From the NCBI GenBank assembly GCA_016928075.1, contig JAFGLJ010000038.1, forward strand, positions 51,302-115,301: 64,000 bases of DNA, written 5' to 3'. Below are positions 26,889 to 39,160 of this stretch, one piece after another. Below the pieces are notes generated by a model. The model made no database searches. It was not told the DNA's origin and saw only the letters and a list, made by a program, of their open reading frames with translations. The stretch comes from Bacteroidales bacterium. GTDB taxonomy: Bacteria; Bacteroidota; Bacteroidia; Bacteroidales; VadinHA17. How positions within the stretch are numbered: the stretch's first letter is position 1; each line of letters begins with the position of its first letter. Both the position numbers and the translations under genes were made by a program.

Positions 26889-27063
26889 GTAAGATTACTC
26901 GCCCCGAGTTCTCGGGGCTCGTGATCATTTTAGAGCTAATTCAAACAAAAAGGACCATTATCATGGTTTCTTTTTACCTTCTGCATGCTTATGAAAATGA
27001 ATTTTCAACGCCTGCAGAATGCAAAAAGACCACCAATCTTCGATTGATGGTCCTTTTTGTTTG
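26889..27063 (-). repeat. Foldback cassette 3' of tRNA-Pro, including the terminator
   Basis: 17-bp perfect IR 26942-26958/27047-27063; terminator hairpin 27023-27058; duplicated T-arm octamer 26889-26896. Confidence 0.8.
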
Positions 27064-27138
27064 TCGGGGTAGTAAGATTCGAACTTACGACCCCCTGCTC
27101 CCAAAGCAGGTGCGCTAACCGGACTGCGCTATACCCCG
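27064..27138 (-). tRNA. tRNA-Pro (TGG)
   Basis: CGGGGTATAGCGCAGTCCGGTTAGCGCACCTGCTTTGGGAGCAGGGGGTCGTAAGTTCGAATCTTACTACCCCGA folds as a cloverleaf; CCA not encoded. Confidence 0.97.
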
Positions 27139-27324
27139 CACTGCCCTCCATAGCTTTAGCGAAGGAGGGCTGTATCTGTTATCAGGCTGCAAAAATAATA
27201 AATTAATCATAAAACTGAAATAAAACCATATTCGTTCTACCGGCCAAAGGTCCCTGAGCCTGAGGGCCTGAACGCAGTGAGGGACCGAAGAGTCGAAGGG
27301 TGATGCACTTTAGACGTAAAGAAT

Positions 27325-29136
27325 TCAATTATCGGTATCCGGGAAATTCATTTTATCCATAATTGCCTGGAATCGTTCATGTGAACGAAGGGAATCAATG
27401 TAAGGGATAATATTCAAGAATATCATCCATAAGTCCCTTTTAACGTATCCCTCTTCGAGAAGTCCAAGTGCTTTTTCTTTTTCACCCAGACCAATATAGA
27501 TCCAGGCCTGCGGCTGCCTGTGCTCAAATCCTTCCTCAATGACCCTGCGATTTAATTCATTGAGAAGATTTAATGCCTCTTCCTCTCTTCCTGCAAATCC
27601 CAGTAACTGACCCGAAGTCCCTATATAGACAGCAGCTATTAAATTAATAGAATCTAATTCTTTCATTTTCTCCCAGTAAGATAAGGCTTTATCGTATTGA
27701 CCCAGCTTTGTGTAATATAAGGTTTGCAGATATAGTGTTTGATGGAAATCTGGCAATAATTCATTACTTATATTTAAAAGTTCAAGGGCTTCCTCATCAT
27801 CTCCATTATCTCCGTTGAGCAATAGTGTAAATACTAACTCATTGTAGGCTAAATGATTCCTTGGGTCAATTTTTATTGTTCGTCTCCCGATTCTAATTGC
27901 TTCGTCGAAATGTTTCATGCTGGTCAGGAAATTGGTATATTCTATCCTTCCGAAAGTAAAATCAGGATTAATTTCCAGTCCCTTAACGAAGTTCTCCTCA
28001 GCTGTTTTCCAGTCCCATTCGTACATATAATTTATGTCACCAAGCAAATAATATGCTTCACCCAGTTTGGGATCATATGCAATAGCCTTTGCCACATTAC
28101 TATATGCTTCTTCAACATGTTCGAAACAAGGGCATGGAACAAACCACATGTCGAGATAAAAATATGTAAAAGCAAGCTGGCAATAAGCCTCTGCAAATGT
28201 TGGATCCAATTCTATTGCTTTCAGGTACTGATCGATAGCTTTTAAAAAAGATTTTTCGTCTTGATGGTGAAACAAATAATTGCCAACCAGATAATGATTG
28301 TAGGCTTCGATATTCCCGGTTGTTTTTTCTTCAATAATACTTTTTTCTTCAGCAGTAAGTATCACCTCCAGTGCGCCGGCAATGTCTTCGGCAATCTCAC
28401 TTTGAACAGTGAATATATCAGTTAATTCTCCTTCATACTCATTTGCCCAAATATGTTCATCTTTTGGTGCTATAATTAACTGTATCCATACTTTTATTTT
28501 ATTCTTTTCAAGACCAAAACTTCCTTCAACCAGGAAATTGGCATCAAGTTCTTCCCCGATGACAGGCGTAGCTTTGTCTGAGTCTTTATACGTTTCAGTC
28601 GAGGTCCTTGATCTTACTGAAAGAGCTTTTATACTGGAAAGATCATTAAGTACCTCTTCCTGAATCCCACTACAAAAATGTACTTGTGAAGAGTCATTAC
28701 TCAGATACCGAAATGGCAACACCGCAATCGACTTTTCCATCCTGGAGAGTCTTACTGCCCGAAGAGAGCCGTAGAAGATATTAAATACTATTAAGGCAAT
28801 AATGACCACAATACTTACATAAGTTGCAATCTTCCATCTGTTTGAAGATACCGGCCTCTCCTTTGCCTTAAGTTCCTCAACAGGTTTTGTTTTTTGTATC
28901 CCTTCAGGAGTGATATCGAATATCCATGACAGTATTATTGTTATTATGAGTCCTAAAGCCAGAGCTATAACAATCCATTTTGATATTTGGCCGGGTAAGT
29001 TTAAGGAATCAGCAATATTATTGCTTACTTCGATTATAACAAATGCTGCTGCGCAGTAAACGGTAATTACACGGATAACCTTCCTGCGCCTGAGCTCCTG
29101 GAAGAACCTGAACGGGTTTTTGGATTTATCAGGCAT
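27325..29136 (-). CDS. Membrane-anchored TolB-like domain/TPR protein (paralogue of 12093..14132)
   Basis: FQELRRRKV plus 3 TM; KSIAVLPF; TPRs; EWDW..AE..F. Confidence 0.88.
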   Translation of the reverse strand: MPDKSKNPFRFFQELRRRKVIRVITVYCAAAFVIIEVSNNIADSLNLPGQISKWIVIALALGLIITIILSWIFDITPEGIQKTKPVEELKAKERPVSSNRWKIATYVSIVVIIALIVFNIFYGSLRAVRLSRMEKSIAVLPFRYLSNDSSQVHFCSGIQEEVLNDLSSIKALSVRSRTSTETYKDSDKATPVIGEELDANFLVEGSFGLEKNKIKVWIQLIIAPKDEHIWANEYEGELTDIFTVQSEIAEDIAGALEVILTAEEKSIIEEKTTGNIEAYNHYLVGNYLFHHQDEKSFLKAIDQYLKAIELDPTFAEAYCQLAFTYFYLDMWFVPCPCFEHVEEAYSNVAKAIAYDPKLGEAYYLLGDINYMYEWDWKTAEENFVKGLEINPDFTFGRIEYTNFLTSMKHFDEAIRIGRRTIKIDPRNHLAYNELVFTLLLNGDNGDDEEALELLNISNELLPDFHQTLYLQTLYYTKLGQYDKALSYWEKMKELDSINLIAAVYIGTSGQLLGFAGREEEALNLLNELNRRVIEEGFEHRQPQAWIYIGLGEKEKALGLLEEGYVKRDLWMIFLNIIPYIDSLRSHERFQAIMDKMNFPDTDN

Positions 29137-29354
29137 TCTGGTTCATGGTTAGTTATAAACAAAGTTAGACCTTCTGTCAATCAAAGTCAAATTAAATCCT
29201 TCATAATGAGTTTTAAGCAGCAGGCTAAACCTCATTCCCCCGAACAAATTTTTTGATGATAGGCTACGATTTTGTAATTTGTATGGTTGTTAAGCCTGAA
29301 ACTGTAAGCCGGAGTATAAAAAACGCCGGGTGAACTAACCTTAAAAACCAGCTT

Positions 29355-38760: not shown

Positions 38761-38838
38761 TTATATGTATTTTTCCTGCACTTGGCGATATTTGTATTAT
38801 TGCTGCAATATTTTTAAAATATTATTGCTGATAAATGC

Positions 38839-38869
38839 TTTGTCGAATAGCATACTTTTCCTATTTTTG
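38839..38869 (+). promoter_or_regulatory. Bacteroidota sigmaA promoter of tRNA-Ser
   Basis: TTTG (38839) N19 TATTTTTG (38862-38869) matches the -33/-7 consensus. Confidence 0.7.
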
Positions 38870-38893
38870 TTGCGCTAAAATCAGCTATTCATT

Positions 38894-38985
38894 GGAGAGA
38901 TGGGTGAGTGGCTGAAACCACTGGTTTGCTAAACCAGCGTACTCTAAAAAGGGTACCGGGGGTTCGAATCCCCCTCTCTCCGCCA
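38894..38985 (+). tRNA. tRNA-Ser (GCT)
   Basis: GGAGAGA/TCTCTCC acceptor stem; ctggt-TTGCTAA-accag anticodon arm; long variable arm; encoded CCA. Confidence 0.97.
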
Positions 38986-39160
38986 GAGCAATCAAAACAA
39001 ATCCCGCATCAACGGGATTTTTATTTAGAAGCTCCTTGTCGTCATAAACTTGTTTATGTAAGGCAAGGAGCTTCTAAATAGAAAAGCCATAGGCTTGTTT
39101 TGATTGCTCTTTAGCTACCCATACACGGGATCTTGAGGAGCGAAGCGACGAATAATCCCC
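38985..39160 (+). repeat. Foldback cassette 3' of tRNA-Ser, including the terminator
   Basis: 16-bp perfect IR agagcaatcaaaacaa/ttgttttgattgctct; long central hairpin; duplicated T-arm heptamer at 39154-39160. Confidence 0.8.

Follow-up and report, generated by a model that had tools for sequence, protein, structure and literature searches.

Cassettes without genes, each about 175–195 bases long and placed behind the 3′ end of a tRNA gene, form one family in the Bacteroidales bacterium of GenBank assembly GCA_016928075.1 (VadinHA17 lineage) and in other Bacteroidota. The window analyzed here is a 64,000-nucleotide stretch of contig JAFGLJ010000038.1 (positions 51,302 to 115,301), in which a preliminary description had claimed that tRNA-Pro and tRNA-Ser are followed by the same order of parts. 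A letter-level check found every coordinate given for the two cassettes to be correct, and the inverted-repeat arms, the CGT...TAAG hairpins, and the T-arm copies were all verified. We explain the cassettes as one tRNA-end family whose members are matched to their tRNA, duplicate locally, have moved among related tRNA genes, and are likely handled as single-stranded DNA of the top (tRNA-sense) strand, probably cut by a GIY-YIG nuclease. The probability of this explanation as a whole is about 0.48, and its parts differ in strength. The cassette is very probably a mobile element; given that it is one, a GIY-YIG protein has a slightly better than even chance of being its enzyme.

In the following, G000 denotes this assembly (2.76 Mb, 76% complete), and other G and L numbers are labels of the genomes and loci compared. 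With a relaxed detector (null 2/500), we collected 152 distinct copies among 330 tRNA loci and 20 tRNA types, a set that was chosen by motif and includes close kin. The copies come from Bacteroidales, Flavobacteriales, and Chitinophagales.

Fold and target matching of the cassette

The unit begins at T-loop position 58, takes in the tRNA tail and the foldback, and ends with a terminal hairpin. Its geometry is fixed and consists of a stem from position 74, a four-way junction, a conserved central hairpin, a 2-nt bulge, a bubble, and the terminal hairpin. The outer stem starts at tRNA position 74 or 75 in 91 of 96 copies, the foldback spans 119–137 bases (10th–90th percentile of the 96 copies), and the spacer to the terminal hairpin measures 16–19 bases in 75 of 85. 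The four-way junction appeared in 86 of the 96 DNA folds, with a left hairpin, a long inner stem capped by the central hairpin, and a right hairpin. The folding z-scores of the two window cassettes are −9.0 (Pro) and −8.9 (Ser), none of 200 shuffles being equally good, and their outer stems score 17–18, whereas at 400 random sites of the genome the score stayed at 12 pairs or below. The preliminary description lacked four parts: the right-hand hairpin, the bulge, the bubble, and, in the terminal stem, the antisense half. The terminator that it placed behind the first arm is borne out for Ser, whose hairpin is terminator-like in the consensus scan, and was not called for Pro. TTAGCT, which it treated as a defining part, is common to both window copies and occurs in only 3 of 152 copies overall; it is a local coincidence of target-matched patches.

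Three patches of the cassette follow tRNA identity, namely the sense box, the antisense box, and the pairs beyond the bulge. The stem of the terminal hairpin copies positions 58–63 of the cognate T-arm. In permutation tests with one copy per class and 16 T-stems, the sense box, which follows the terminal motif, matched the cognate T-stem at 2.91 of 4 positions compared with 1.58 under permutation (99.9th percentile 2.31), and the antisense box, which precedes the motif, at 2.36 compared with 1.46. Beyond the purine-rich 2-nt bulge, pairing with the last acceptor bases reached 1.45 compared with 0.37 (permutation over 19 tRNA ends), and the bulge is followed by at least two pairs in 72 of 152 copies. 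Opposite positions 65–71, complementarity is only 3–18%. This value is below chance and lies between matched patches, and the bubble is therefore programmed. That the bases behind the motif track the cognate T-stem was one of two points on which the preliminary description had staked its proposal in advance. The other, that further tRNAs carry the layout, holds for many genes, among them 12 of the 23 tRNA genes of G000 (25 in total) that have enough downstream sequence to be scored.

Loop and pair statistics favor single-stranded DNA rather than RNA as the folding molecule. The top strand is the more stable one in 81 of 96 copies. GNA triloops number 155 on the top strand and 25 on the bottom strand, whereas the UUCG loop, an RNA-type loop, occurs once on the top and 14 times on the bottom. 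GCGNAGC mini-hairpins are known as a DNA motif (PMC13037366), and UUCG serves as an argument for RNA in PMC2864571. The outer stems contain 1572 Watson-Crick, 19 G-T, and 16 A-C pairs, so that G-T is no commoner than A-C.

Distribution, arrays, and inheritance

The strict terminal motif occurs six times in the assembly, each time behind a tRNA gene, and the central hairpin lies at tRNAs in six of nine cases, the other three having no foldback. Arg(CCT) in G000 carries two different units in tandem, joined via a full tRNA tail. Among genus relatives, the cassette was found at 13 of 36 (G006), 11 of 37 (G011), and 5 of 24 loci examined out of 45 (G013). T stands at position 60 in each of the 36 carriers of G000, G006, and G011, and none of the 17 genes without T60 carries a cassette, a count overstated by the kinship of the genomes. 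The His, Gly(GCC), Pro, and most Ser genes bear the cassette in nearly all of the four genomes examined.

A 23-base terminal pattern was found at no fewer than 119 genome loci; among the matches listed (80 titles), 78 are from Bacteroidota and one from Melioribacteraceae. A same-strand tRNA lies within 400 bases upstream at 86 of these loci, 23 have too little flank, and 10 lack a whole tRNA. Seven of these ten show, by eye, a displaced tRNA tail ahead of the cassette, the pattern expected from island insertion. The central hairpin pattern yielded 120 metagenome loci (111 distinct), of which 56 stand directly behind a whole tRNA, 7 are too short, and 48 are other; among the matches listed of those 48 are tRNA and transfer-messenger RNA (tmRNA) tails, a 23S rRNA end, and a non-tRNA foldback family. 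The distribution is patchy, with the core pattern in 7 of 121 genomes of the order, and of the six outside hits three are cassettes. Cultured carriers are Zeaxanthinibacter, Crocinitomix, and Muriicola. The strict terminal motif gave no hit in viral contigs, and no cassette match was obtained in phage and plasmid collections. Across the phylum, the strict pattern matched 15 of 401 genomes, mostly as noise, G000 and G331 being the only ones that looked real. Looser patterns in viral contigs gave 34 loci with two real cassettes, probably host flanks.

Related structures were seen outside this set. The 3′ ends of tmRNA also bear the cassette (L299, L400, L379, and L471), and the core hairpin is also found behind a 23S rRNA end (L303). 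The non-tRNA foldback family has the same central hairpin with two right-hand hairpins and lies near gene ends in gut contigs (L296, L302, L313, L354, L365, L374, L309, L370, L383, and L387); its neighbor gene is closest to those of Vescimonas and Subdoligranulum (Oscillospiraceae-like genomes). At tRNA-Ser(GGA) of G005 (L521), each of four 96-base tandem units includes the tail of the tRNA and repeats the tRNA 3′ end in antisense orientation. These units stop at the same T-loop junction as the cassette and represent a second, simpler type, of which decayed versions seem to be present behind Ser(GGA) in G000, G002, G004, and G008.

Filled and empty alleles were found within the genus at Pro(TGG) (L010 filled, L013 empty) and at Ser(GCT) (L451 and L459 filled, L454 and L457 empty); the preliminary description had suggested a search for empty alleles in close relatives. 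These alleles, together with arrays joined through tRNA tails, are compatible with its proposal of a tiny non-autonomous element entering at the T-loop. The 5′ halves of the cassettes behind Pro(GGG) in G006 and Pro(CGG) in G011 are 93% identical; the two tRNA genes are different, and in each cassette the box goes with the T-stem of its tRNA. Cassettes at different amino acids share at most 72% identity. The filled and empty alleles, the tail-joined arrays, and this Pro lineage show that the cassette has moved. A one-off scar or template switch, its other suggestion, is unsupported because the same cassette lineage stands at different tRNA paralogues and the geometry is constant across the phylum.

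Whole units repeat head to tail, and shortened units are added behind the terminal box. Of the 152 copies, 28 in which no terminal box was parsed and 5 whose flanks were short were set aside. In 63 of the remaining 119, further sequence of the same cassette follows (null 0.25%). Twelve of these repeats restart at the tail and 51 at variable interior points after 0–54 unrelated bases; 11 shortened units restart at the central hairpin. Identity between cassette and tRNA stops at position 63–65 in 80 of 119, which together with the variable restarts indicates a fixed right end and a ragged left end. A full tRNA tail ends 15 of 152 copies, and a short copy ends the rest. By eye, seven of these lead into another cassette, and most of the others into island-end-like sequence with short direct repeats. 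Interior flip-flop was rejected as a regular step, with 0 of 152 copies reversed. At the contig end of L455 (G007), the cassette interior is inverted between the arms, which is either a true flip or an assembly error.

Mechanism and rival explanations

Our best guess for the mover of the cassette is a small tRNA-targeting GIY-YIG nuclease encoded elsewhere and acting in trans, and this is the weakest step of the model. Homologues of such small proteins are present in 47 of 60 family genomes. Most of 30 GIY-YIG loci examined adjoin tRNA genes, where duplicated tRNA halves are plugged by hairpins at the D-loop or the T-loop; several have T-loop plugs, which end before G57 and thus one base from the junction of the cassette, whose copy starts at A58. 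Ssn proteins, GIY-YIG members of the same superfamily, cut single-stranded DNA next to a hairpin with a CGT tag, a few bases on its upstream side (PMC11893778). The guess is based on this cutting, on the plugs adjoining the cassette junction, and on the 11 units that restart at the central hairpin. The enzyme would recognize the conserved central and terminal hairpins and would nick the top strand near position 63–64, where the short box meets the bubble. The free end could then be lengthened along another copy of the unit or joined to it. A full copy landing at the T-loop would restore the tRNA, and copies landing at the terminal box, a mimic of the T-arm, may be 5′-truncated. Thanks to the bubble, the element would be able to fold while the tRNA sequence that it carries stays folded.

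Several results weigh against this explanation. No gene-carrying copy was found among at least 119 genome, 120 metagenome, and 30 GIY-YIG loci, the units contain no open reading frame, and the longer copies with cargo that the preliminary description had proposed looking for thus did not appear in the loci searched. A GIY-YIG gene occurs at 2 of 241 cassette or core loci, 79 of which have only 300-base flanks, and both genes lie upstream of the tRNA; at the 30 GIY-YIG loci the cassette occurs only as a neighbor at the same tRNA. The G000 assembly, at 76% completeness, contains no small tRNA-linked GIY-YIG gene, and no recurring mobilizer was seen among 229 neighbor proteins of outside loci. 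The degenerate consensus of SRM, the DNA hairpin of the Ssn system, occurs in 0 of 96 cassettes on either strand, and just downstream of the cassettes in 0 of 152 by the strict and 2 by the loose form. Simple insertion predicts a full tail at the 137 of 152 copies that lack one. Same-anticodon cassettes are the most alike on average, and the closest cassette is usually that of the same tRNA in relatives (mean 0.64 vs 0.58), so that vertical descent accounts for much of the history and many copies are old. In the modeled circle, the box is left unpaired in the fold, and a rod-like circle, tried as a candidate, is unsupported for that reason; neither a circle nor a nick was observed. GNRA loops are also biased to the top strand (123 vs 46); this bias and the central loop are compatible with both DNA and RNA. 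In ten Ser(GCT) orthologues, two-sided changes affect 30 of 57 pairs and 93% of cells are paired compared with 35–46% when the structure is slid, but the structure scored was derived from the same alignment. Because of this, and because inverted repeats can correct each other, the covariation is maintained pairing and not proof of selection. The choice of the 152 copies by motif and the close kin among them count on the same side.

The rival that we take most seriously, unlikely as it is, makes the cassette a folded single-stranded attachment site for a tyrosine recombinase, similar to attC or the attP of CTX phage, served by host Xer or a tRNA-island integrase with the cassette possibly hitch-hiking. 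The three attC elements (PMC2727003) have counterparts in the box, the unpaired bubble, the stem with its bulge, and the variable terminal structure. The break at the border of box and bubble would suit strand exchange, and the island-end-like sequences behind full tails and the displaced tails at 7 of 10 loci (both by eye) point in the same direction. An XerD-like gene is present, and the only tyrosine recombinase of the assembly scores best as XerD. However, the R″/R′ boxes of attC occur in 0 of 152 copies, no integron integrase or gene cassette lies nearby, and an island integrase domain was found in just 1 of 122 and 1 of 107 neighbors. Variable 5′ truncation with added bases is unlike site-specific recombination, one conserved core serves 20 tRNA types whereas island integrases are site-specific, and the far-end attachment site of the G005 island was not found within 40 kb. 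The integrase-type entry that the preliminary description had considered is only partly supported: it predicts a full tail everywhere, which 15 of 152 copies have, and no copy with cargo was found. We consider it less probable again that the cassette is a DNA or RNA structure selected by the host at tRNA 3′ ends, with self-correction of the arms, gene conversion between isoacceptors, and palindrome instability making the arrays. The strong vertical signal, the stem beginning exactly at the 3′ processing point, the near-constant presence at His, Gly(GCC), Pro, and most Ser genes, and the lack of a mobilizer in cis would fit a host function. Yet the same genus often has empty alleles, just 7 of 121 genomes of the order show the core pattern, with about three of the six outside hits real, islands displace the cassette without visible cost, and instability leaves the breaks at 63–65 and the core in non-tRNA foldbacks unexplained.

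The fixed right end, the ragged left ends, and the short added patches would also be produced if a read-through tRNA transcript were reverse-transcribed at a target nick with a fixed 3′ end and variable 5′ truncation, in the manner of a bacterial short interspersed nuclear element. The folded strand is the tRNA-sense strand, and the central loop and the GNRA tips are compatible with RNA as well. We find such copying of RNA improbable: a terminator-like hairpin stands ahead of two thirds of the unit, G-U shows no enrichment, GNA triloops prevail and UUCG is depleted, the 229 neighbor proteins of the outside loci include no reverse transcriptase, and the 5′ parts of tRNAs are not copied. Only a very small chance is left for an HUH transposase (Y1 or rolling-circle) that moves the cassette in trans, as RAYTs move REPINs. 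Such a mover would suit an element that has hairpins but no gene, is biased to one strand, and is fixed at one end, and G000 has two Y1 genes (L463 at C9 and L464 at C64), but by eye their flanks carry other repeats and not the cassette hairpins, and no Y1 domain was found among the neighbors of the outside loci. We know of no HUH system that duplicates a tRNA tail.

A more far-reaching form of our explanation is possible but doubtful. In that form, the cassette would be a new minimal class of parasite, a gene-less single-stranded DNA of about 180 bases, possibly moving via a small circle, that reads its target by base pairing through re-tuned antisense patches and inserts at the T-loop with a borrowed generic nuclease. 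Under that form the cassette would be one branch of a cross-phylum superfamily, since the core hairpin is common to the non-tRNA foldbacks in gut Clostridia-like contigs, and it would amount to a naturally reprogrammable DNA-guided insertion system. Ends re-matched to each tRNA around a fixed core hairpin are the look expected of a guide-like or structure-read insertion system. In bacteria, mobile DNA lands mainly at tRNA genes, and annotation misses this abundant resident of such sites since it contains no gene. Old island junctions are marked by the cassette, which may also mislead the prediction of attachment sites. The uncharacterized small GIY-YIG proteins of Bacteroidota gain a concrete candidate substrate with a predicted cut site, and the existence of cultured carriers makes the idea testable.

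Known systems and features of the window

By membership tests, the cassette is outside Ssn/SRM, attC, miniature inverted-repeat transposable elements (MITEs), REP/REPIN, and Rfam. It resembles Ssn/SRM as a strand-specific DNA hairpin with an unpaired 5′ tag starting with CGT (PMC11893778). One strand folds and would be the one read, as the GNA loop counts and strand stabilities given above indicate, and small single-domain GIY-YIG proteins are abundant in cassette genomes. In contrast to SRM, the cassette has no flanking nuclease gene, is six times longer, branched, and tied to tRNA ends to which it is matched. The words "tRNA" and "Bacteroid" are both absent from the main text of the Ssn paper, supplements aside (PMC11893778).

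With attC the cassette shares structure conserved over sequence, a short box, an unpaired central spacer, extrahelical bases, a variable terminal structure, and a single folding strand (PMC2727003). It differs from attC, beyond the missing boxes, integrase, and gene cassettes, in that half of its fold is the target tRNA's own tail. The attP of CTX phage, also a folded single-strand site, shares the attC-type likenesses with the cassette. Islands and prophages that target tRNA genes resemble it by crossover in the T-loop, restoration of the tRNA by a carried tail, and tandem arrays. Unlike these, the cassette has neither integrase nor cargo at about 180 bases, its tail is usually cut at 63–65, and one core serves 20 tRNA types. 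The rtT repeats behind tyrT of E. coli are units of about 180 bases, each with a tRNA 3′ tail and a terminator. To our knowledge, rtT occurs at one locus in enterobacteria, and no foldback, antisense box, or shared core is known for it.

A MITE would be expected to have a target-site duplication directly outside the terminal inverted repeats; none was seen in 145 of 152 copies and 2 nt in 7. REP and REPIN elements, too, are palindromes without genes, and their movement in trans as single-stranded DNA is presumed. No RAYT-like gene is flanked by the cassette, and the Y1 genes have other flanks. CGTC-tagged repeats have been reported in Bacteroidetes (PMC3733652), but those repeats are dispersed and 20–40 bases long, whereas the cassette in G000 occurs only at tRNA and tmRNA ends and is rewritten per target. 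In PMC3733652, "tRNA" occurs four times, each about enzymes, and passages of PMC2864571 and PMC5737381 name no such motif. At the Rfam gathering threshold, the window and 18 loci gave only tRNA, tmRNA, and rRNA, with nothing convincing at E up to 5; on the window cassettes themselves, Rfam returned nothing but the two tRNAs. A published description of the cassette was not found in the literature searched, which lay outside subscription journals and supplements.

Some further hairpin elements were noted. SRM-like repeats are inserted directly at the cassette terminal box at L452, L456, and L122, and in one case are amplified with it. Small GIY-YIG genes lie against tRNAs with hairpin-plugged halves, often in tandem (L474–L503, L208, and L227), and form an element family of their own. 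At L002 (G000:C21) and L209 (G006), a small GIY-YIG gene has its own flanking hairpin repeats away from tRNAs, in tandem in G006. Each Y1 gene (L463 and L464) has its own hairpin repeats, and the C64 repeat also lies behind the xerD-like gene.

Table 1. Parts of the two window cassettes and their target genes (window positions).
Feature	Positions	Strand	Remarks
tRNA-Pro(TGG), target gene	27063..27138	−	
Pro T-loop 3′ side and T-stem, positions 58–65	27072..27079	−	source of terminal copy; putative entry site
Pro arm a	27047..27063	−	begins at position 74; perfect 17-bp inverted repeat
Pro left hairpin (GAA triloop) and T-rich tract	27022..27046	−	terminator-like by eye; no call in consensus scan
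Pro central hairpin, CGT...TAAG frame	26988..27010	−	conserved family core; CGT at 27010, TAAG 26991–26988
Pro right hairpin	26955..26966	−	weak in this copy; from sequence and family pattern
Pro arm a′	26942..26958	−	closes foldback; perfect 17-bp pairing with arm a
Pro bulge and spacer opposite acceptor strand (bubble)	26927..26941	−	TTAGCT 26939–26934
Pro terminal hairpin	26889..26926	−	8-nt T-arm copy at end (26896–26889 = 27079–27072)
tRNA-Ser(GCT), target gene	38894..38985	+	
Ser T-loop 3′ side and T-stem	38967..38973	+	source of terminal copy
Ser arm a	38985..39000	+	perfect 16-bp inverted repeat
Ser left hairpin with T tract	38999..39026	+	terminator-like; consensus scan
Ser central hairpin, CGT...TAAG frame	39040..39062	+	CGT at 39040, TAAG 39059–39062
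Ser right hairpin	39084..39096	+	
Ser arm a′	39095..39110	+	perfect 16-bp pairing with arm a
Ser bulge and spacer opposite acceptor strand (bubble)	39111..39126	+	TTAGCT 39111–39116
Ser terminal hairpin	39127..39160	+	antisense box, GAA-triloop tip, 7-nt T-arm copy (39154–39160 = 38967–38973)

The genes flanking the two cassettes are ordinary, encoding BON-LysM and TPR proteins around Pro and an M24 peptidase and a Fib_succ_major protein around Ser. About 400 bases downstream of tRNA-Pro, 29 of 36 bases (window 26652–26617, minus strand) match the 3′ half of tRNA-Pro; the match begins in a 9-mer present 133 times in the genome, and part of it may be chance. Immediately 5′ of tRNA-Pro lies a GC-rich hairpin (window 27170–27143, minus strand). 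In relatives, D-loop-type GIY-YIG elements (L219, L476, L480, and L502) show the same hairpin ahead of tRNA-Pro or of the 5′ half of that tRNA. The hairpin in the window may be the relic of such an element.

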